Source: an uncultured Mycoplasmatota bacterium
GTDB taxonomy: Bacteria > Bacillota_I > Bacilli_A > RF39 > UBA660
Assembly: GCA_945872435.1 (NCBI GenBank)
Contig: CAMBYP010000001.1
Span: forward strand, 544-64,543
Reading direction: 5' to 3'
Length of the DNA stretch: 64,000 nucleotides
The notes under the pieces were generated by a model. It was not told the origin of the DNA, searched no databases, and saw only the letters and a list, made by a program, of their open reading frames with translations. Positions within the stretch are counted from its first letter, which is position 1. Each line of letters opens with the position of its first letter. Below are positions 5,388 through 16,534 of this stretch, in pieces. A program made the position numbers and the translations under genes.

Positions 5388-6260
5388 TTATTTTATTGTT
5401 TTTTTCTCTATATAGTTAATCATATAATACATAATAGTAGCAACAATTGCTAAAATGATAATTCCAGTCATTACTAAATCTAGATTGAACACTTGAGAAC
5501 CATACATAATTAAATATCCGATTCCTTCTTTCGAAACTAAAAATTCTCCAGTAATGACTCCGATTAAGGACATACTAATATTAATTTTTAATGCATTTAA
5601 GATGGTTTGTAAACTACTAGGCATGATTACCTTTTGATAAATCTGCCATTTTGTTGCTTTCCATGATTGTAATAATCTTATTTTATATGTATCTGTCTCT
5701 ATAAAACTTTGATAAACATTCATGATAGTAATAATTACTGAGATAAATAAGGCCATTAAGATAATAGAATTTTTACCGGCACCAGCCCAAATGATAATGA
5801 TAGGACCTAGTGCAACTTTTGGAAGACTATTTAAAATAGTTAAATATGGATCAAGTACTTTTGCTAAAAATGGGAACCACCATAATACGGTAGCAATTAA
5901 AAAGCCTAAACCTGTTCCTAAGGAAAAGCTAATCATTGTTTCATAACATGTAACCCATATGTGATACCATAGCTTTCCATCTTTTATTAGTTCTAATATG
6001 GTTTCTAATACATTTTTAGGACTAGATGATATAAATGTATTAATGATTTCTAAATCAGCAAATAACTGCCAAGCAAATATAAATAAGAATAAAATCATTA
6101 CTTGTGTGATATGAACATATCTTTTATTCTTTTTTATTTTTTTTAAAAATAGGAGATGTTCATGACTATACATGGAAATCAATCTCCTTCCATATTTGAT
6201 CATAATATTTAGAAAATTCTTTACATTTTCTATTTTCAATTGGTGTACTACGATTTTCAA
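5388..6260 (-). CDS. ABC transporter permease, NitT/TauT family (SsuC/ThiX-like)
   Basis: Six TM helices. A permease EAA-like region. Overlaps the ATPase gene, which is typical of ssu-type operons. Confidence 0.8.
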   Translation of the reverse strand: MKIVVHQLKIENVKNFLNIMIKYGRRLISMYSHEHLLFLKKIKKNKRYVHITQVMILFLFIFAWQLFADLEIINTFISSSPKNVLETILELIKDGKLWYHIWVTCYETMISFSLGTGLGFLIATVLWWFPFLAKVLDPYLTILNSLPKVALGPIIIIWAGAGKNSIILMALFISVIITIMNVYQSFIETDTYKIRLLQSWKATKWQIYQKVIMPSSLQTILNALKINISMSLIGVITGEFLVSKEGIGYLIMYGSQVFNLDLVMTGIIILAIVATIMYYMINYIEKKTIK

Positions 6261-6912
6261 ATTGAATTGTATGTATATTTTTTATTTGACAAGGTCTTTC
6301 TGTTAAAACAATAATACGGTCTGCCATGCTAATAGCTTCAGCTAAATCATGGGTTACCATAATTGCACTTTTCTTTTCTTTTTTGATAATTTGATAAACA
6401 TCATCAGATACGGCTAATCTGGATTGGTAATCTAATGCTGAAAATGGTTCATCTAAAAGTAAAATATCGGGTTTTGTTGCTAATGTTCTAATTAGAGCAA
6501 CTCTTTGTCTCATACCTCCAGATAAATTAGCTGGATAACTATGGATAAAGTCTTTTAAGCCATATGTTTTTAAAAGAGATAGTACATAATCTTTATTTTC
6601 ATTAGTTAATTGATTTGTAATCTCTAACCCCAATAGACAATTGTCTAAAATTGTTCTCCAAGGAAATAAACTATCTTGTTGTAACATATATCCAAAAGTT
6701 ATATTTTTATTTTTTTCAATGGTACCATTTGATTTTTCTAGTAAATCACAAAGAATTGATAAAATAGTTGATTTACCACATCCACTAGGTCCTACAATGG
6801 CAATGAATTCTCCTGGTTTTAAATCAAATGTAATATCTTTAATAGCAGGCGTTTCTCCTTGTTTTGTATGATACGTCTTTTTGAGATGATGAACTTTTAA
6901 TAATGATTTCAT
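6166..6912 (-). CDS. ABC transporter ATP-binding protein, NitT/TauT family (SsuB/ThiZ-like)
   Basis: Walker A GPSGCGKST, signature LSGGMRQRV, Walker B LLLDEPFSALD. Confidence 0.85.
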   Translation of the reverse strand: MKSLLKVHHLKKTYHTKQGETPAIKDITFDLKPGEFIAIVGPSGCGKSTILSILCDLLEKSNGTIEKNKNITFGYMLQQDSLFPWRTILDNCLLGLEITNQLTNENKDYVLSLLKTYGLKDFIHSYPANLSGGMRQRVALIRTLATKPDILLLDEPFSALDYQSRLAVSDDVYQIIKKEKKSAIMVTHDLAEAISMADRIIVLTERPCQIKNIHTIQFENRSTPIENRKCKEFSKYYDQIWKEIDFHV

Positions 6913-6913
6913 A

Positions 6914-7474
6914 TTATTTTTTCAAAAATTTAGTTGTTACTAATTGATTGTAAGGAGCTTGTTTTTCTAATTCACCTGCATTTTTTATAATATCTTGGAT
7001 ATGATTAAAATCTTTTTCTTGAATTTCAGTAGTACGAAACCAAGAGTCTATATTACGATAACGTTTTACAATTTCCTCTAAATCATTTAAAGAAGTGTCA
7101 GGAAATTCATCTTGAATTATTTTTGCTACTTCTTGATCAGAATGATTATGTACATAATCCAGTCCTTTTTGAATGGCATTAGAGAAGCTTTGAATGATAT
7201 CTTGGTGATTTTCAATATAACTTTTTCTAGCATGATATGTGGTATAAGGAACAATTCCACCAAGTTCTCCTAAAGAAGCAACGACATATCCATATCCTTC
7301 TTTTTCTAATTGTAAAGCATTTGGTTCAAATAAATTGACAAAATCTCCATTTCCACCAATAAAAGATCCACTCATTGCGGCAAATTCAACACTGGTATCA
7401 ATGTTGACATCTTGTTTTGGATCAATGCCATTTTGTTTTAAAGCCCATTCAAAGGTCATCACGGGCATACCACC
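6914..7474 (-). pseudogene. C-terminal half of a NitT/TauT-family substrate-binding protein gene (SsuA/ThiY/NMT1-like), separated from its N-terminal half by the island
   Basis: 184 aa resembling only the C-terminal lobe of NMT1/SsuA substrate-binding proteins. It has no signal peptide or N-lobe. The frame is open upstream only to a TGA at 7481-7483. The N-lobe with its signal peptide is at 16110..16534 on the same strand. Confidence 0.7.
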
Positions 7475-7575
7475 AGTACGTCATTGTAGTGATAACCTAA
7501 ATAATTTATATTTAATATCTTTACCTCTTTCTAAGAATGTGTTATACTTTAGTTAAAATAGGGATGGTAAATTGT

Positions 7576-8301
7576 ATGAAGATGTTGAAGAGTTTAATCA
7601 TTTTTGTAGGTGTTATTTTTTTGTTATGTGGATGTGGTAAATCACAAGATGAATTAGTTATGGTGACAGAAGCTGGGTTTGCCCCATATGAATATTATAA
7701 AAACGGAGAAATTATTGGTGTTGATATTGAAATTGCGAAAGAAATTGCAAAAGAAATGAACAAACAGTTAGTTGTTAAAGATGTTGCTTTTGATTCTATT
7801 GTAAATGAATTACAAAGTGGGAAAGCAGATTTTGCAGCTGCAGGGATGAGTATTACAGAAGAAAGAAAAAAACAAGTAGATTTTACAATAGAATATACAA
7901 CTTCAAATCAAGTAGTTGTAGTAAAAAAAGATAGTAATATTACTAATTTAAATGATATTAAAGATAAAAGAATTTCAGTTCAATTAGGTACTGTTGCTGA
8001 TCAATATGTAACAAAGAATTATAAAAATGCGAAAGTAAATCGTTTAAAGAAATTTTTGATTGCAGCAGAAGATGTAAAAAATAATAAAAGTGATTGTATT
8101 GTTATGGATGCATTACCTGCTAAAGAGCTAGTAAAAAGTAATCCTGAATTAAAAATATTAGACGGTGTTTTATTTCAAGATAAGTATGGTATGGCAGTAA
8201 AAAAGGGTAATCAAGAATTATTGAATACAATCAATCAAGTTTTAGAACGTTTAATTAGTGAAGGAAAAATTGAAGAATATATGATTCAATTTAGTGAATA
8301 G
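7576..8301 (+). CDS. amino-acid ABC transporter substrate-binding lipoprotein (polar amino acid family; candidate arginine-binding)
   Basis: Signal peptide with lipobox LLCGCG. Type-3 periplasmic binding-protein fold. RBS AGGGA 10 nt upstream. First gene of the island. Confidence 0.8.
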   Translation: MKMLKSLIIFVGVIFLLCGCGKSQDELVMVTEAGFAPYEYYKNGEIIGVDIEIAKEIAKEMNKQLVVKDVAFDSIVNELQSGKADFAAAGMSITEERKKQVDFTIEYTTSNQVVVVKKDSNITNLNDIKDKRISVQLGTVADQYVTKNYKNAKVNRLKKFLIAAEDVKNNKSDCIVMDALPAKELVKSNPELKILDGVLFQDKYGMAVKKGNQELLNTINQVLERLISEGKIEEYMIQFSE

Positions 8302-8312
8302 GGGTTGTAATC

Positions 8313-9011
8313 ATGAGTATCGTAGATTCATTTTATCAGTCAATCATTGTAGATCAGCGTTATCAATATATTTTAGAAGGTTTAAAAAATACATTGTTAA
8401 TCGCTTTTTTTGCTTTGTTCTTAGGACTTAGTTTAGGTATATTAATTGCTTTGATTAGAAATAGTTATAAAGAAACGAAAAAACATAAGATTTTAAATAT
8501 TTTGTGCACATTTTATGTCACCATCATTAGAGGAACACCGACTGTATTACAATTGATGATTATTTATTATGTGATTTTTAAACAAGTAAATATTAGTGTA
8601 ATTTTTGTAGGTGTTCTTTCTTTTGGATTGAATTCTGCAGCTTATGTTTCAGAAATTATAAGAGCTGGAATTGAATCTATTGATAAAGGGCAAAAAGAAG
8701 CAGCTCATTCTTTAGGACTTAATTATTTACAATTAATGCGTTATATTATCTTGCCACAAGCAATTAAAAATGTTTTACCCGCATTAGGAAATGAATTTAT
8801 CACTTTATTAAAAGAAACTTCAGTTGCAGGATATATTGGAATTATTGAATTAGTAAAAGCGAGTGATATTATTGCTTCTAATACATATGATTATTTTTTC
8901 CCACTCATTATTGTAGCAATTATTTATTTAATTTTGACATTAGGTCTTTCTAAATTGTTAAAATTATTAGAAAGGAAAATGAATCTTCATGCAGACGTTG
9001 TTGAAAGTTGA
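8313..9011 (+). CDS. amino-acid ABC transporter permease (HisM/GlnP family)
   Basis: Multi-TM with EAA-like loop (SLGLNYLQLMRYIILPQAIKNVLPALGNE). Confidence 0.85.
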   Translation: MSIVDSFYQSIIVDQRYQYILEGLKNTLLIAFFALFLGLSLGILIALIRNSYKETKKHKILNILCTFYVTIIRGTPTVLQLMIIYYVIFKQVNISVIFVGVLSFGLNSAAYVSEIIRAGIESIDKGQKEAAHSLGLNYLQLMRYIILPQAIKNVLPALGNEFITLLKETSVAGYIGIIELVKASDIIASNTYDYFFPLIIVAIIYLILTLGLSKLLKLLERKMNLHADVVES

Positions 9012-9708
9012 AAATTTATATAAATCATTTGGTGATATAGAGGTATTACATAATATTAATTTTGAAATTAATAAAGGTGATATTGTAGTTATCATTGGCC
9101 CTAGTGGAAGTGGAAAAAGTACATTTTTAAGATGTTTAAATTTTTTAGAAAAGCCTACAAATGGGAAAATTTTATTAAATGAAAAAGAAATGAAAGATAA
9201 TTTAGAATTACATAAAAAAATAGGAATGGTATTTCAAAGTTTTAATTTATTTTCAAATTTAACTGTATTAGAAAATATTACTTTGGCACCAATTAAAACA
9301 AAACAATTGTCTGAAAAAGAAGCACAAAATGAAGCAATGAAATTACTTCGAATGATTGGATTAGAAGATAAAAAAGATGTATACCCAGATAATTTATCGG
9401 GAGGACAAAAGCAAAGAGTTGCTATTATTAGAAGTTTAATTATGAACCCTGAAATTATGTTATTTGATGAACCAACAAGCGCTTTAGATCCTGAAATGAT
9501 TGAAGAAGTATTAACTTTAATGAAAGAAGTAGCACAAAAAGGAATGACTATGGTGATTGTTACTCATGAACTTGATTTTGCAAATGATATAGCAAATAAA
9601 GTTGTTTTTATGGATGAAGGTAAAATTGTAGAAACTGGAACGCCAACTGAAATTTTTAAAAATCCAAAAACAGAACGTTTAAAAGAATTTTTATCAAAAA
9701 TTAAATAA
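8989..9708 (+). CDS. amino-acid ABC transporter ATP-binding protein (GlnQ/ArtP-like)
   Basis: Walker A GPSGSGKST, LSGGQKQRVAI, Walker B MLFDEPTSALD. Confidence 0.85.
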   Translation: MQTLLKVENLYKSFGDIEVLHNINFEINKGDIVVIIGPSGSGKSTFLRCLNFLEKPTNGKILLNEKEMKDNLELHKKIGMVFQSFNLFSNLTVLENITLAPIKTKQLSEKEAQNEAMKLLRMIGLEDKKDVYPDNLSGGQKQRVAIIRSLIMNPEIMLFDEPTSALDPEMIEEVLTLMKEVAQKGMTMVIVTHELDFANDIANKVVFMDEGKIVETGTPTEIFKNPKTERLKEFLSKIK

Positions 9709-9764
9709 TACGAGTTTAGAGAGACCTCGTTATCAAAAAACTCAAGAAGGAAAGGGAGGAAATT

Positions 9765-11009
9765 ATGGGAAAAATTCATGTAACAAGCGAAATAGCACCT
9801 TTGAAAAAAGTGTTATTACATAGACCTGGAAAAGAATTGTTAAATTTAACACCAGATAGTTTAAGTCGCTTATTATTTGATGATATTCCTTATTTGCCTG
9901 ATGCAATTAAGGAACATGATGAATTTGCCGATTTATTAAGACAAAATGGGGTAGAAGTTGTCTATCTAGAAGATCTTATGGCAGATGTTTTGGATTTAAG
10001 TGAAGAAATCCGTGATAAGTTTATTAAGCAATTTGTTTATGAAGCTGGAATTCGTACTCCAAAGTATAAGTATTTAGTTATTGATTATTTAGACCAAATT
10101 ACCAATAGTAAACAACTTGTATTGAAAACAATGGAAGGTATTCAGATTAGTGATATTTCTAGACGTAAAAGAGATATTGAAAAATCATTGATCGATCAGA
10201 TTGATGAAGAAGATAAATTTATTGCAGATCCAATGCCAAATTTGTATTTTACACGTGATAATTTTGCTAGTATTGGAGAAGGTATTAGTTTAAATAAAAT
10301 GTATTCAGTAACAAGAAATAGAGAAACGATTTATGCTGAATATATATTTAATTATCATCCTGAATATAAAGATCAAGTGGATAAATATTATGATCGTTTT
10401 TATCCATATCATACAGAAGGTGGAGATTTACTAAATTTAAATGAACATATTTTAGCAGTGGGTATCTCACAAAGAACTTGCCCAGAGGCAATTGATCAAT
10501 TGGCTAAAAATTTATTTAAAGATCCAGAGTGTAAAATTGATACTGTTTTAGCATTTAATATTCCAAATAGTCGAGCATTTATGCATTTGGATACTGTATT
10601 TACACAAATTGACTATGATAAATTTACATATCATCCAGGTATTATGGATACTTTGCAAGTATTTGAAATTACAGAGGGTGATGATCCAAACAGTGATGAG
10701 GATTTAACAGTAACTGAAATCAATGATTCATTAGAACATATTTTAGAAAAGTATTTAAAAAGAAAAATTACTTTAATACCATGTGCTGGTGGTGATAAGG
10801 TATCCGCAGAACGTGAACAATGGAATGATGGAAGTAACACGCTTTGTATCGCACCAGGAGTTGTAATTGTATATGACAGAAATAATTTAACAAATCAAAC
10901 TCTAAGAGCTTATGGTATTAAAGTACTAGAAATTCATGGCGCTGAATTATCAAGAGGACGAGGAGGTCCTAGATGCATGAGTATGCCACTAATAAGGGAG
11001 GACTTATAA
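9765..11009 (+). CDS. arcA: arginine deiminase
   Basis: N-terminus [24 protein letters not shown]. Length 414 aa. The C-terminal catalytic cysteine region (GGPRCMSMP). Confidence 0.9.
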
Positions 11010-11995
11010 TGGATTTAAGAGGAAGAGATTTATTAAAATTAATTGATTATACTCCTGAAGAAATTCAATATTTAATCGCTGTGGCAAAAGAATTTAAAAA
11101 AATTAAAAAAAGCAATCAATCACATGAATTTTTAAAAGGAAAAAATATTGCTCTTATTTTTGAAAAAGATTCTACTAGAACAAGATGTGCTTTTGAAGTA
11201 GCTGGCTATGATTTAGGAATGGGAGTTACTTATTTAGGACCTACTGGTTCACAATTAGGAAAAAAAGAAACAATTGCTGATACTGCTAGAGTATTAGCTG
11301 GAATGTATGATGGAATTGAATATCGTGGATTTGGGCAAGATGTAGTTGAAGAGTTAGCAAAATATTCAAAGGTTCCTGTTTGGAATGGATTAACAGATGA
11401 ATTTCATCCTACTCAAATGTTGGCTGATATGATGACTGTAGATGAACATTTTGGTTATTTAAAAGGACTTCATTTTACTTTTTTAGGTGATGCTAGAAAT
11501 AATGTTGGTAATTCGTTGATGGTTGTTTGTGCTAAATTAGGACTTCATTTTACTTGTTGTGCACCAAAATCCTTATTTCCAAAAGAAGAATTAATAAAAC
11601 AATGTGAAGAATATGCAAAAGCAAGTGGGGGAAGTATTACTTTAACAGAAGATGTATTAGAAGGAACGAAGAACGCTGATGTATTATATACTGATGTATG
11701 GGTTTCTATGGGAGAAGCTCCTGAATTATGGCAAGAAAGAATTTCTCTATTACAAAAATATCAAGTAAATAAAGAAGTAATGAATAATGCCTCTCCTAAT
11801 GCGATTTTCTTACACTGTTTACCATCTTTTCATAATATAGATACGAAAATAGGTAAAGAAATATATGAAAAATATGGAATTAAAGAAATGGAAGTAACGG
11901 ATGAAGTGTTTGAATCAGAACAATCTAAAGTAATGGAAGAAGCAGAAAATCGTATGCATACAATTAAAGCTGTTATGTTTGAAACTTTAAAATGA
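11009..11995 (+). CDS. arcB: catabolic ornithine carbamoyltransferase
   Basis: STRTRCAFE carbamoyl-phosphate-binding motif, and HCLP. I placed the start at ATG 11009, which has an AAGGGAGG RBS and overlaps the arcA stop. The context between arcA and arcC implies the catabolic enzyme. Confidence 0.85.
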
Positions 11996-12927
11996 AAAAG
12001 AAAGTAGTAATCGCACTTGGAGGAAATGCCTTAGGAAACACTCCAAGTGAACAATTAAAACTTGTTAAAATAACAGCAAAAACGATTGTAAATTTAGTAC
12101 AAGATGGTTACCGTGTGATTGTAACTCATGGAAATGGACCACAAGTTGGTATGATTAATTTAGCAATGGAAAGTGCTAGTGAAACTATTGATACACCAGA
12201 AATGCCTTTTGCAGAATGTGGGGCAATGAGTCAAGGTTATATTGGTTATCATTTACAACAATCAGTTCAAGAAGAATTATTAAAAAGAAATATGAGAAAG
12301 CATTGTTTAACTGTAATCAGTCAAGTATTAGTTGATAAAAAAGATAAGGCTTTTCAACATCCTACAAAGCCAATTGGGTCATTTTATACAAAAAAGGAAG
12401 CAGATCAAATTGCTAAAGAAAAAGGATATGTGATGGTGGAAGATGCGAAAAGAGGATATCGTCGTGTTGTACCATCTCCACAACCAGTAAAAATATTAGA
12501 ATTATCAATGATTGAAGATTTAATGGATGATGGTAATATTGTCATTGCCTGTGGTGGTGGCGGAGTACCAGTAGTGAAACATTATAAAGGTTATAAAGGA
12601 ATCGACGCAGTTATTGATAAAGATAAAACAAGTGCTCGTTTAGCCGTTGATTTAAAAGCAGATATTTTACTAATATTAACAGCTGTTGATAAAGTTTATC
12701 TTCATTATAAAGAAGAAAATGAAGAAGCAATTGATATTATGAATGTAAAAGAAGCAAAAGAGTATATTGAAGAAAAACAATTTGCCGAAGGAAGCATGCT
12801 ACCTAAAGTAGAAGCATGTATTGATTTTGTAACACACCATAGAGGTGGACAAGCCATTATTACATCTTTGAAAAAAGCAGAAGAGGCTTTATTAGGAAAA
12901 ACAGGTACCATTATAGTAAGGAGGTAG
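11992..12927 (+). CDS. arcC: carbamate kinase
   Basis: [11 protein letters not shown]-terminus; 311 aa; amino-acid kinase fold. Follows arcB with an overlapping stop/start. Confidence 0.9.
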
Positions 12928-12932
12928 TAAAA

Positions 12933-14384
12933 GTGACAAAAGTCGTTAAGAAGAAAAGAAAAGGTTTTTTAACAGCGTTTTCTATTATATTTATTTTAAT
13001 TTTTATGCTTGGTATTTTATCTCACTTTTTACCAAAAGCAGAATTTGTTGGTGAAGAAATTGTAAATGGAAGTGGTGTAGTTGGAGCTTCTCTTTCACAA
13101 ATTTTATTATCACCAATTTTAGGATTTGAAAATGCCATTGATGTTTGTATTTTCGTACTTATTTTAGGTGGATTTTTAGCAATTGTTGCTAGAACAGAAG
13201 CATTAGAAACAGGAATTAAAGTTTTAGTGAGAAAATTAAAAGGTAGAGAGTTAATTTTAATTCCAATTTTAATGTTTATTTTCTCAATTGGAGGAACTAC
13301 TTACGGGATGCTTGAAGAAACTGTAGGTTTTTATGCATTATTATCAGCAACAATGGTAATGGCTGGCATGGACACTTTAGTTGCTTCTGCTGTTGTATTA
13401 TTAGGAGCAGGTTCAGGTGTTTTAGGCTCAACAATCAATCCATTTGCTGTAGGTGCAGCAGTTAGTTCATTACCAAAAGGAATTGCTGTAAATCAAGGAA
13501 TTATTATTGGATTAGGTATTGTATTATGGCTTACTTCATTACTTATTTCTATTATTTTTGTAATGAGTTATGCAAAAAAAGTTATGAAGAAAAAAGGTTC
13601 TACTTTCTTATCTTTAAGAGAAAGAAGAAATATGGAAGAAGAATATGGAGAACATGCAACAACATCAGTTGATGATGTTCATTTAACAAAGAAACAAAAA
13701 ATTACTTTAGGTTTATTTGCACTTACATTTATAGTAATGATTGTTGGATTTATTCCATGGGAATCATTTGGTATTGATATTTTTACTAAATTTACAGGTT
13801 GGTTAACTGGTATGCCATTAGGACAATGGTATTTCTATGAAGCAGCTTTATGGTTCTTAATTATGTCAGTAATTATTGGATTTGTAAATCGTACAGGGGA
13901 AAAGAAATTTGTTGATACCTTTATCGATGGTGCTGATGATATGGTAGGAGTTATTTTAATTATTGCTATTGCACGTGGAGCTTCAGTTTTAATGCAAAGT
14001 ACATATTTAGATAATTATATTATTTATAATGCTGCTGAAGCATTAAGAGTGGTTCCGGTTGTTATTTTTGCTCCATTTAATTACATTATTCATGTGGTAT
14101 TATCTATTTTAGTTCCATCAAGTTCAGGATTGATGACATTATCAACTCCAATTGTTGGACCATTAGCTAATGAATTAAATTATAATGTTGAAACAACAAT
14201 TATGACATTAGTTGCAGCAAATGGACTTGTTAATTTAATTACTCCAACATGTGGAGCAATTATGGGAGGATTAGCAGTTGCTAAAGTAGAATATTCAACT
14301 TGGGCTAGATGGGCAGCAAAAGTTGTACTTACGATTGCTATTGTTAATATTGTAATTCTTACAGTTGCATCATTAGTTTTATAA
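12933..14384 (+). CDS. YfcC/DcuC-like family membrane transporter, candidate arginine/ornithine antiporter (ArcD-like)
   Basis: 483 aa, about 12 TM segments, GTG start with a GGAGG RBS. Last gene of the arc cluster. The family assignment is inferred from topology and context. Confidence 0.65.
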   Translation: MTKVVKKKRKGFLTAFSIIFILIFMLGILSHFLPKAEFVGEEIVNGSGVVGASLSQILLSPILGFENAIDVCIFVLILGGFLAIVARTEALETGIKVLVRKLKGRELILIPILMFIFSIGGTTYGMLEETVGFYALLSATMVMAGMDTLVASAVVLLGAGSGVLGSTINPFAVGAAVSSLPKGIAVNQGIIIGLGIVLWLTSLLISIIFVMSYAKKVMKKKGSTFLSLRERRNMEEEYGEHATTSVDDVHLTKKQKITLGLFALTFIVMIVGFIPWESFGIDIFTKFTGWLTGMPLGQWYFYEAALWFLIMSVIIGFVNRTGEKKFVDTFIDGADDMVGVILIIAIARGASVLMQSTYLDNYIIYNAAEALRVVPVVIFAPFNYIIHVVLSILVPSSSGLMTLSTPIVGPLANELNYNVETTIMTLVAANGLVNLITPTCGAIMGGLAVAKVEYSTWARWAAKVVLTIAIVNIVILTVASLVL

Positions 14385-14386
14385 TT

Positions 14387-14416
14387 AAAATCTATGCTAA
14401 GCATAGATTTTTTTTT
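14387..14416 (+). terminator. intrinsic terminator closing the arc operon
   Basis: aaaatctatgcttagcatagatttt hairpin followed by T9. Confidence 0.65.
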
Positions 14417-14545
14417 ATGGAATATATTAAAGTGGTGATGTGTATGAATATAAAACTTCATTATCAACAAAATGGGCAAACATTACAAGAATTAATGGAA
14501 AAATTGATGGAATTATATGATTATCATAATGAATGAGGTGATTAT

Positions 14546-16066
14546 TTGAATCAAAAATATCGTGCAGGTATTTATATTAGACTTTCTAGAGAAGATGAAA
14601 AAGAAGAAAAAAATGTCGATAGTGAAAGTGTTAAAAATCAACGTAATTTACTTATGAATTATATAAAAGAACATGATTATTTTTTTTATAAGGAATATGT
14701 TGATGATGGATATAGTGGTTCTAATTTTGATCGCCCAGCGTTTCAAGCATTAATTACGGATATTGAAAATAAAAAAATTAATATGGTAATTGTAAAAGAT
14801 TTATCGCGATTAGGAAGAAATAATATAGAAACAAATGAATATATAGAAAGATATTTTCCCAAACACAGCATTCGTTTTATTGCTATTTTAGATGATGTAG
14901 ATACTGAAATTGATACTTATGGAAACGAGATGGCACCGTTTAAAGTTTTTGTAAATTCATATTATAACAAAGAAACATCTAAAAAAATTAAAACAACTTT
15001 AAAGAATAAAAAAAAGGGCGGGTTATTTACAGGATGGAAAGCACCATATGGTTATCAAAAAGATCCTAGTAACCCTTATCATTTAATTATTGATAAAAAA
15101 GTAGAACCAGTCGTAAAAAAAATATTTGAACTTGCTAAAAATGGAAATAGTTCTACCAAAATTGCATCTATTTTATCTAAACGAAAAATTCCTAATCCTA
15201 GTAATTATGCTAATTTAAATCAAACATCTGTAAATTCATGGTGTCCTAGAACCATTGATGATATGTTAACAAATCAAACTTATATCGGTAATTTAACCCA
15301 AGGAAGAAGAAAAAAAATATATGGAATGAAATTAGAAATTAGAACGAAACAAGAAGATTGGATTATTGTACACAATACACATGAAGCAATCATAGATTTA
15401 AAAACGTTTGAAGCAGTTCAAAAAGTAAAACAGCATATTACTAAAAAATCGACAAACAATTATTTATTTTCTGGTTTTTTAATATGTAAAGAATGCGGCC
15501 ATTCATTGAGTATTATAAAAAATAAAAATAGAAAACAAGTATATACGTCTTGTAATTATTATCGAAAACATAGTAAATTACATGTTTGTACACCACATAC
15601 TATGAATTATAAACAGTTAGAATCAAAAATACTTACTACTTTAAATAATCTCTTGATAACTAACATTGATAAAAATAAATTAATTCATAAACTGCAATAT
15701 TTAGATCACAAACATAATTCATGTTGTAACTTATGTAAAAATTTAAATCAAGAAAAAAATAAGTTAATTGTTTTAGAAAATCAACAAGATCAATTATACT
15801 TAGATTTTAAACAAAACTTGATTTCATTACAACAATATATAAGATTGAAAAAAGAGATAGAAGAAAAAAATATGATACAACAAAAAATTATACAACAATT
15901 AAAAGACAAAATAAAAAAGAATAAAACTACTTTAGAATATGAAAAAATCATTGATCAATATTTATCATTAAAAAAAATGAATAAAGTATTTTTTTCTAAT
16001 TTGATTGATAGAATTGAAATTGATAAAAATAAAAATGTTGATATTTATTTTCGATTTCATATATAG
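14546..16066 (+). CDS. large serine recombinase (resolvase/invertase N-domain + recombinase domain + zinc ribbon + coiled coil)
   Basis: N-terminal YIRLSREDE with the catalytic Ser in the RLSR context. 506 aa. C-terminal Cys cluster (CKECGH...C..C) and coiled coil. TTG start with a GAGGTG RBS. The gene ends 44 bp inside the right island boundary. Confidence 0.85.
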   Translation: MNQKYRAGIYIRLSREDEKEEKNVDSESVKNQRNLLMNYIKEHDYFFYKEYVDDGYSGSNFDRPAFQALITDIENKKINMVIVKDLSRLGRNNIETNEYIERYFPKHSIRFIAILDDVDTEIDTYGNEMAPFKVFVNSYYNKETSKKIKTTLKNKKKGGLFTGWKAPYGYQKDPSNPYHLIIDKKVEPVVKKIFELAKNGNSSTKIASILSKRKIPNPSNYANLNQTSVNSWCPRTIDDMLTNQTYIGNLTQGRRKKIYGMKLEIRTKQEDWIIVHNTHEAIIDLKTFEAVQKVKQHITKKSTNNYLFSGFLICKECGHSLSIIKNKNRKQVYTSCNYYRKHSKLHVCTPHTMNYKQLESKILTTLNNLLITNIDKNKLIHKLQYLDHKHNSCCNLCKNLNQEKNKLIVLENQQDQLYLDFKQNLISLQQYIRLKKEIEEKNMIQQKIIQQLKDKIKKNKTTLEYEKIIDQYLSLKKMNKVFFSNLIDRIEIDKNKNVDIYFRFHI

Positions 16067-16109
16067 ATTTTTTATTTTGTTATCTTTATTGTGACGAACA
16101 CCTTTTCGG

Positions 16110-16534
16110 CCACCGATAACAGTTTTTCCTTTCATATCTTCTAATGTAAAATTATCTATTTTTTTCCTAGATACAATAAAACTACCATCTTTTTTGGTTA
16201 AAGCAGCAAAATTAATTAAATAATCCTTTTCTCCTTGATTATAAACATAAATTGTAGCTTCACTACCAGCTAATCCAATTTGTACATCGTTTGATAGTAC
16301 ACTGGCTGTTACTTTATCCGCACCTGGAGTTAAAATAAATTCTACATCTAACCCCTCTTCTTGAAAATAACCTAAATGTTTTGCAACATATTGTGGTGCA
16401 TAAAAAATACTGTGTGTTACTTCGGCAACTTTAATATGTTTTAAATTAGATTTAGGTTTTCCAGTATAAATATAAATAATAGATAAAACCAATATTATAA
16501 AGATTGTAATGATTAAAAATATTATTTTCTTCAA
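16110..16534 (-). pseudogene. N-terminal half (signal peptide + N-lobe) of the same SsuA/ThiY/NMT1-like substrate-binding protein, truncated by the island
   Basis: Signal peptide, then a region strongly resembling the NMT1/SsuA N-lobe up to ...GKTVIGG. After that the ORF reads into island sequence (RKGVRHNKD...). Joining at the shared GGTGG gives a contiguous ...KTVIGG|MPVMTFEWAL... protein of about 327 aa. Confidence 0.7.

Follow-up and report, generated by a model that had tools for sequence, protein, structure and literature searches.

A small island with a large serine recombinase gene and an arginine deiminase operon splits a substrate-binding protein gene in an uncultured gut Mycoplasmatota bacterium

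The 64-kb stretch analyzed here (64,000 nucleotides; "the window," to which all positions refer unless another contig is named) comes from an uncultured Mycoplasmatota bacterium (GenBank assembly GCA_945872435.1, contig CAMBYP010000001.1, positions 544 to 64,543 of the forward strand). In it, a gene encoding an NMT1/SsuA-type substrate-binding protein (SBP) is split into two minus-strand halves by inserted DNA, which we call the island. The island is very probably a small, modular, self-integrating element of the large serine recombinase (LSR) type, neither phage nor conjugative, which comprises 8,624 bp plus a 4-bp core and has captured an arginine deiminase (ADI) operon.

The boundaries of the insertion are given by public contigs in which the same site is empty. 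A database search with the reconstructed SBP found a 330-residue protein (P0001) that differs from it at one residue and whose gene is present in two assemblies from a single sample (L001 and L002); this empty-site contig was recovered independently by the ENA and Logan assemblies. The neighbors of the intact gene in L001 are the same as those of the split gene in the window, namely, a pyruvyl-transferase gene and the genes for an ATP-binding cassette (ABC) ATPase and permease. L001 positions 56-1854 match window positions 17897-16099 (99.72% identical), and L001 1851-3917 match window 7474-5408 (99.76% identical). The two alignments overlap by exactly 4 bp, CACC, and the insertion is therefore bounded at 7475..16098, consistent with an earlier estimate of about 8.6 kb. 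The junctions are identical in more than 20 independent metagenome assemblies produced by different studies and assemblers. Reconstructed in this way, the sites at the two ends of the integrated island (attL and attR) share a short identical core, and the empty site (attB) is present in a near-identical genome.

Joined at the CACC at 16099-16102, the restored SBP has 330 residues and reads ...TVIGGRKGGMPVMT...; the database search that yielded P0001 also returned thousands of full-length SBP homologues, and all seven of those inspected (7/7) have GR.GGMP at this position. A first-pass annotation, made from the sequence without database searches, had recognized the split gene but joined its halves at CCACC (16110-16114), which would give a protein of about 327 residues. 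That join is in frame, but this CCACC is a coincidental second copy within host sequence, 12 bp from the true core; we rejected it because it removes the conserved RKGG of GGRKGGMP and because the empty-site DNA puts the core at 16099-16102. The description of the halves themselves holds. The N-terminal open reading frame (ORF; 15968..16534, minus strand, 188 residues) begins with a signal peptide and an NMT1-type N-lobe, reads ...TVIGGRKG, and then diverges from SBP sequence, while the C-terminal ORF (6914..7468, minus strand, 184 residues) corresponds to the C-lobe and has no signal peptide. The halves cover positions 5-96 and 111-215 of the Pfam NMT1 profile, without overlap, and align to contiguous segments of full-length homologues, as the annotation had predicted.

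The attachment sites have the standard LSR arrangement. On the coding strand, attB reads ...CGAAAAGGTGGTATGCC... (junction sequence, GGGCATACCACCTTTTCGGCCACCGATAAC) and encodes the GRKGGMP hinge motif of an NMT1/SsuA-type SBP; it is kept as DNA (...AGAAAAGGTGGTATGCC...) in the intact SBP genes of other species. Joining the two ends of the element gives its own site, attP, which on the coding strand reads ...TTATCACTACAATGACGTACT-GG-TGTTCGTCACAATAAAGATAA... (junction sequence, ATTGTGACGAACACCAGTACGTCATTGTAG). The left arm precedes the homology to recombinase-free ADI operons, which in the case of contig L115 starts at 7538, and pairs as an inverted repeat with 16058-16098. In the window, attP is an imperfect inverted repeat in which 15/24 positions are symmetric about a central GG/CC. 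A sister island on contig L062 (described below) has the attP ATCTTTTTTAAAGACGA-AACCCGTA-TCGTCTTTAAAAAAGAT, a perfect 17-bp inverted repeat with an 8-bp spacer centered on CC; the pattern common to both is GACG-N4-GG-N4-CGTC. In two further elements, on L023 and L026, the CACC core is unchanged but the arms that flank it are particular to these elements (TGTACTCAC / GTGAGTACA); those of L023 are 9 bp long. Crossover most likely takes place at the nonpalindromic GG of the coding strand (CC at 7473-7474 and 16101-16102).

The recombinase gene is read outward to the right junction. The first-pass annotation had correctly put its end close to that junction, but the stop codon lies 32 bp away rather than 44 bp. 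The protein contains the Pfam domains Resolvase (PF00239; 1.7e-21), Recombinase (PF07508; 8.5e-21), and Zn_ribbon_recom (PF13408; 1.6e-11), and residues R12, S14, D17, and D85-L-S-R88-x-G-R91 (DLSRxGR) are invariant across 18 relatives. DUF4368, a marker of multi-targeting LSRs, was absent by Pfam scan. The nearest solved structure to the catalytic domain is that of TnpX (5e-23). The best NCBIfam match of the LSR is XisF, at a score far below the cutoff (96.8 versus 375), and the CcrB model NF047343 scores 80.1 (cutoff, 900). The window LSR belongs to one tight cluster whose next relative is 59% identical; a search of species-representative genomes with an LSR alignment gave relatives of ≤48% identity among the matches listed.

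Immediately upstream of the LSR gene is a conserved small ORF. Homologous peptides occupy the same position in L023 (9631-9723), L026, L062 (about 9913-9999), L096, and many of the loci L029-L108. They are 28 to 60 residues long, recur directly upstream of LSR genes that are only 35 to 54% identical, and share the pattern K-Y-K-I-N-x-x-F...G-x-T/S-L-x-E-L/I-L...L-K-x-E-L; in some loci the small ORF runs past the start codon of the LSR gene (in L062, the overlap is 8 nt). Pfam gave only sub-threshold similarity, to the C-terminal end of DUF6870. The small ORF could encode an accessory factor of this LSR clade or a translational leader peptide.

The cargo comprises seven plus-strand genes: three for an ABC importer, arcA, arcB, and arcC, and a gene for a YfcC-type carrier. 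These identities and that of the LSR were confirmed with Pfam and NCBIfam domains; they and the terminator (14387-14411) agree with the content proposed earlier. A promoter-like site precedes the operon (Table 1), in a region where promoter-type consensus matches are not enriched. As for arcB, the longest ORF begins at 10973, overlapping the end of arcA by 37 nt, and homology supports a start at the ATG at 11006 (MDLRGRD...), which leaves a 4-nt overlap with the arcA stop codon; its sequence does not separate catabolic from anabolic ornithine carbamoyltransferases here. The importer proteins best match Lys/Arg/Orn, Gln, and Art types, all under the curated cutoffs, and the carrier scores 172.8 against the YfcC equivalog model NF008611, below the cutoff of 500. 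Because importer and carrier score below their family cutoffs, their probable roles, arginine import and arginine/ornithine exchange, rest on operon context. Family scans of the island ORFs found neither an APC-type ArcD nor arcR. The ADI pathway yields one ATP and two ammonia per arginine, and gains in energy supply and acid tolerance are plausible. Domain scans of the eight large island ORFs revealed no relaxase, coupling protein, or type IV secretion genes and no phage structural, packaging, or replication genes, as the first-pass annotation had stated for conjugation and phage structural functions; all of these ORFs encode transport, ADI, or LSR functions.

The same operon also occurs without a recombinase. 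In contigs L117/L118 the seven genes are flanked by spoIVA and by glycosyltransferase genes, and no recombinase lies within 10 kb of them; L115 carries them after a LytR/PASTA gene, again without a recombinase. Homology to these copies is confined to 7538..14384 (76% nucleotide identity with L115); window 7654..14352 is 69% identical to L117 at the nucleotide level. The island is therefore tripartite, with the left arm (63 bp), the seven-gene operon (6.85 kb), and a recombinase module (1.7 kb) made up of the terminator, the conserved ∼30-residue ORF, the LSR gene, and the right arm. The ArcA homologues form a continuum (93, 88, 86 ... 78% identity). Judged from these comparisons, the cargo is a captured operon that belongs to the ordinary chromosomal content of related Bacilli, not an exotic gene set.

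Table 1. Features of the island and of the split transporter locus, in window order
Feature	Position	Strand	Basis or remark
Genes of the host ABC importer, downstream of the split SBP gene (5388..6912)	permease 5388..6260; ATPase 6166..6912	-	ORFs, ncbifam
C-terminal half of host SBP gene	6914..7474	-	residues about 147-330, without signal peptide
Left copy of 4-bp core CACC (GGTG on coding strand)	7471..7474		empty-site alignment overlap
Left arm of element, attP-derived half-site AGTACGTCATTGTAGTGATAAC...	7475..7537 (63 bp)		element-specific DNA
Promoter-like site, TTTACC, 17-nt spacer, TATACT with upstream TG	7520..7548	+	consensus match only
Polar amino-acid ABC importer	SBP_bac_3 lipoprotein 7576..8301; permease 8313..9011; ATPase 8989..9708	+	SBP_bac_3, BPD_transp_1, ABC_tran
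arcA, arginine deiminase	9765..11009	+	TIGR01078 525.6 (cutoff 489.1); Pfam ADI 4e-120
arcB, ornithine carbamoyltransferase	11006..11995	+	TIGR00658 420.8 (cutoff 280.85)
arcC, carbamate kinase	11992..12927	+	TIGR00746 384 (cutoff 358.25)
DcuC/YfcC-family membrane carrier, putative arginine/ornithine exchanger	12933..14384	+	PF03606 4e-80
Intrinsic terminator, 11-bp stem then T run	14387..14411	+	closes cargo operon
Conserved small ORF, 30 residues, MNIKLHYQQNGQTLQELMEKLMELYDYHNE	14444..14536	+	immediately upstream of LSR gene
Large serine recombinase (LSR), 506 residues	14546..16066	+	reads outward to right junction; catalytic serine in YIRLSRED
Right arm of element, attP-derived half-site ...TTATCTTTATTGTGACGAA	16067..16098		
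Right copy of 4-bp core CACC	16099..16102		empty-site alignment overlap
N-terminal half of host SBP gene	16099..16534	-	signal peptide and N-lobe, residues 1 to about 146

Since the N-terminal half ends after 188 residues and the C-terminal half lacks a signal peptide, the insertion should inactivate the host SBP, and the downstream ATPase and permease are probably deprived of their binding protein. A riboswitch upstream of the SBP gene was sought as a clue to the substrate, and none was found; PDB matches of the SBP are limited to distant structural-genomics SBPs and THI5-like proteins. The sole Rfam family above threshold in the window is a T-box leader (RF00230; 38149-38333, plus strand; 102.6 bits, gathering score 93).

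Other elements use the same codon. LSRs P0125 and P0131, which are 53 to 54% identical to the window LSR and come from other "Bacilli bacterium" metagenome-assembled genomes, lie in the orthologous gene at the same codon and core. The L023 element carries a 703-residue LPXTG-anchored surface protein with SpaA domains, and the L026 element carries a DUF4116 protein. The sister island on L062 has both the codon and the ADI cargo in common with the window: the two are collinear, with 72% nucleotide identity over 7.9 kb, ArcA being 81%, ArcB 76 to 77%, and the ArcC-YfcC region about 71% identical. Their LSRs are 48% identical over residues 5-370, and the flanking host SBP, ATPase, and permease are only 55 to 66% identical. 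L062 (CAVKYO010000021.1, bin H07683-L1_cleanbin_000030) is labeled Acidaminococcus fermentans; because its GC content (29.6%) and gene content are typical of low-GC Bacilli, it is almost certainly mis-binned. Its arcC lacks a stop codon and continues in frame into the YfcC-type gene, giving a 794-residue ORF (7475-9859).

Species closer to the window's host than that of L062, represented by P0002 (SBP, 80 to 81% identical) and P0007 (72%), have intact SBP genes with conserved synteny and attB. The first-pass annotation had expected related genomes to lack the island and to have an uninterrupted SBP gene with GGTGG at the site, and this is what both the near-identical strain and the closest related species show. 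With distant hosts occupied and closer hosts intact, at least two integration or precise-excision events are needed, which is evidence of mobility on an evolutionary timescale.

The sequence of events that we favor is as follows. The island's own site-specific LSR would insert a circular element into attB within the SBP gene: it would pair the inverted-repeat attP on the circle, centered on GACG-N4-GG-N4-CGTC, with attB, cut both sites at the central GG/CC dinucleotide, rotate, and religate, leaving CACC at both ends and the SBP gene cleanly split. The recombinase module, with the left arm on one side and the terminator, ∼30-residue ORF, LSR gene, and right arm on the other, brackets the captured operon, and sister elements retain this module and the target codon with other cargo.

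Within the host species, the exact LSR protein was found on 81 contigs (184 index blocks), and the island was at this site in every contig read; the YfcC-type carrier is on 106 contigs, while the intact SBP allele is on 2 contigs from one sample. The empty-site strain differs from occupied strains by 8 to 13 single-nucleotide polymorphisms (SNPs) over 3.86 kb of flank, and occupied strains differ from each other by 2 to 11. It belongs to the same species, and the SNP ranges fit excision and ancestral absence alike. Compared with the most divergent occupied strain (L109, 98.5% identical), the LSR has 10 synonymous and 3 nonsynonymous differences and a ratio of nonsynonymous to synonymous substitution rates (dN/dS) of about 0.07. 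Its dS (0.037) is like that of the flanking pcrA (0.034). Island and chromosome have thus been passed on together, and purifying selection keeps the recombinase functional. The description of the island as mobilized by a serine recombinase holds for how this cargo was integrated, as judged by the empty site and the attachment sites, but in this species the island is now old, nearly fixed, and vertically inherited. In some occupied assemblies arcB, the island ATPase gene, or the LSR gene is split into two ORFs (L003 6428-7450; L013 5747-6466 and 11304-12660); these may be sequencing errors rather than real pseudogenes (L013 coverage is 4.5x).

Several observations weigh against a mobile LSR island. 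GC content and skew give no compositional signal marking the island, whose GC content equals that of the host. The inverted repeat of the window attP is not significant by itself (shuffle P of about 0.12); its symmetry gains weight because L062 and L023 show the same design. The divergence between L062 and the window is alike for the host and island ABC ATPases (66% versus 67% identity), so that old vertical inheritance with later precise losses would look the same as horizontal transfer. No recombination directionality factor was identified, and no known domain of such a factor is present in the island; the conserved ∼30-residue ORF is the sole candidate. The 22-mer spanning the attP junction of an excised circle was absent from JGI metagenome contigs and IMG/VR viral contigs, a weak test given that a control found only one contig of this species there. 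Finally, the LSR cluster at 90% identity is confined to this species and its next relative is 59% identical, giving no sign of recent interspecies spread.

Some of these points also fit an immobilized relic, in which a single ancestral integration left an LSR that no longer moves the island, the lineage of the empty strain never having received it. We regard this as a serious but distinctly less probable explanation. It accounts for the dominance of the occupied state, for the codivergence of the island with its flanks, for the missing attP junction in the contig collections searched, for an LSR cluster limited to one species, and for the position of the empty-site strain at the outer edge of flank diversity. 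A useless recombinase gene, however, would not be expected to stay intact in most assemblies under purifying selection, and both att half-sites are intact; moreover, distant hosts have this design at the identical codon whereas closer hosts are empty, which requires repeated integration or precise excision.

Much less probable is a regulated, gene-restoring switch of the type seen at sigK ("skin" element, SpoIVCA) and at fdxN (XisF), in which conditional excision would rebuild the SBP gene. The insertion does lie inside a coding sequence that excision would restore perfectly, XisF is the best NCBIfam match of an LSR that selection maintains in a nearly fixed element, and some relatives have sporulation genes, such as spoIVA in L117. 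The cargo, though, is a complete metabolic operon with its own putative promoter rather than junk DNA, and an excised circle that does not replicate would be lost, making excision a one-way event in dividing cells. Sister elements also bring unrelated cargo to the same site, and unrelated elements disrupt other genes of the operon, which makes the operon look like a dispensable landing pad instead of a regulated gene. An assembly or binning artifact, in which a chimeric join would simulate a split gene, is effectively refuted: the window and all comparators are metagenome assemblies, and L062 shows that mis-binning occurs, but the same junctions recur across the independent assemblies noted above, two assemblies independently yielded the empty-site contig, and the junctions are placed precisely, at a 4-bp core that shows the attP symmetry.

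An LSR-integrated island that moves, or has moved, by its own recombinase is an element of a known kind, and its mechanism is not new. Durrant et al. (2022; PMC10083194) compared genomes in which sites were occupied with others in which they were empty and so delimited LSR elements by the thousand; most LSR clusters were site specific, DUF4368 marked a multi-targeting clade, and diverse LSRs converged on one coding-sequence site, as in the example of 33 LSRs in a prolyl isomerase gene. The island resembles those elements in its delimitation by occupied and empty genomes, its short shared core, the LSR gene beside the att site, insertion within conserved coding sequence, the several diverged LSRs on one site, and the absence of DUF4368. 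Unlike the examples described there, its host is an uncultured human-gut lineage of Bacillota/Mycoplasmatota-like bacteria. In the literature searched, we found described neither this target, the GGRKGGMP hinge-coding site of an NMT1-type SBP gene, nor an ADI island borne by a serine recombinase, with a complete ADI operon and importer.

ACME, the staphylococcal arginine catabolic mobile element, of which the first-pass annotation had called the island a functional analogue, is about 31 kb long, compared with 8.6 kb here. ACME carries a secondary arc (ADI) cluster and an ABC transporter cluster, lacks a recombinase of its own, and integrates at orfX when mobilized in trans by ccrAB encoded by the staphylococcal cassette chromosome (SCC) (PMC2768820). 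Both ACME/SCC and the island are nonphage and nonconjugative, are moved by large serine recombinases, and combine short flanking repeats with arc and ABC transporter cargo. Unlike ACME/SCC, the island has just one, self-encoded LSR and lies within an SBP gene rather than at the 3' end of orfX (rlmH), has a YfcC-type carrier in place of arcR/arcD, and matches the CcrB model far below cutoff. ACME is thus an analogy of cargo only, not a relative.

Two other groups of elements share features with the island. The clostridial mobilizable transposons Tn4451/Tn4453 are likewise small, with a single LSR (TnpX) at one end, and it is TnpX whose catalytic domain gives the closest solved structure. TnpX needs no partner either to excise the element as a circle or to insert it, and strands cross over at a central dinucleotide; Tn4451 inserts at multiple targets and bears, besides a resistance gene, a Mob/oriT function (TnpZ/RSA). 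In contrast, domain scans show no relaxase/Mob domain in the island, which appears strictly site specific. As in skin/SpoIVCA, fdxN/XisF, and SPbeta/SprA, an LSR-bounded element lies in coding sequence and its excision would restore the frame exactly; the island differs in that its cargo is a self-contained metabolic operon and its LSR falls far short of the XisF cutoff.

The transporter operon that the island interrupts is also hit by other elements. On L026 (9700-19267; also L027 and L028; GCA_017511275.1, contig JAFWKU010000085.1), a second, unrelated LSR (521 residues, about 28% identical) is oriented the other way and adjoins the same SBP gene at residue ∼36. Its neighbors are a Pot-like ABC importer and all genes of the agmatine deiminase pathway: aguA (TIGR03380, 610 > 381.8), putrescine carbamoyltransferase (TIGR04384, 546 > 500), an amino-acid/polyamine-type permease, and carbamate kinase. 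The DNA fetched does not extend to the far boundary of this agmatine deiminase island. L114 (6138-7200) has an ADI cassette 84% identical to that of the window at the nucleotide level (ArcA, 93%) and, within ∼110 bp, the 3' end of a host-type ABC ATPase gene (from residue ∼190) followed by the permease gene; no LSR is present at that end of the cassette. Close to that residue, the ATPase gene of L083 and L084 is broken by unrelated LSR elements (37% identical). This suggests that the operon has a second site into which the ADI cassette moves as well.

Additional cases involve other positions in the operon and its vicinity. In a strain of the window's species (L008, 1-1628), another LSR gene (>422 codons) abuts a permease truncated to 216 residues (normal length, 261), and an insertion sequence with an rve transposase lies between the pyruvyl-transferase gene and pcrA. 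In L096 (8409-12485; UMGS841, "Tenericutes"), an LSR that is 37% identical is found at SBP residue ∼70. The closest relative with an intact SBP gene (L110, 2902-5415; L111, 6998-8216) has its ATPase gene cut after residue 139 beside a Mob_Pre relaxase element. In L029 (9295-11302), an LSR that is 46% identical lies directly beside the SBP C-terminal half and reads inward.

We offer a broader interpretation only tentatively, since we think it rather more likely to be wrong than right: in gut Bacilli of Mollicutes-like type with reduced genomes, the SBP-ATPase-permease operon may be a landing pad with several sites, used by a Mob_Pre element and by at least three unrelated LSR lineages, into which a modular cassette (arms, ∼30-residue ORF, and LSR) shuttles interchangeable cargo, preferentially ATP-yielding deiminase operons. 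The deiminase cargo would be that of the ADI pathway (window, L062, and L114) or of the agmatine deiminase pathway (L026). If this were true, the small conserved ORF would encode a new accessory factor of this LSR clade, and energy metabolism would be a horizontally exchangeable accessory trait in these organisms.

What the present analysis adds to known LSR elements is a set of exact att sites, a family of modular elements among which cargo is exchanged, and the finding that one transporter operon is targeted repeatedly. The result is a fully delimited natural LSR system, with attB, attP, attL, attR, a probable crossover dinucleotide, and orthologues of 48 to 59% identity on the same site, and it may be useful as an integrase tool. 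For the biology of this abundant, uncultured human-gut lineage, it means that a complete arginine-fermentation module can be borne as recombinase cargo. The same ADI module sits at different loci in relatives, and this affects both metabolic inference from metagenome-assembled genomes and strain-level differences in arginine-derived ammonia and ATP.

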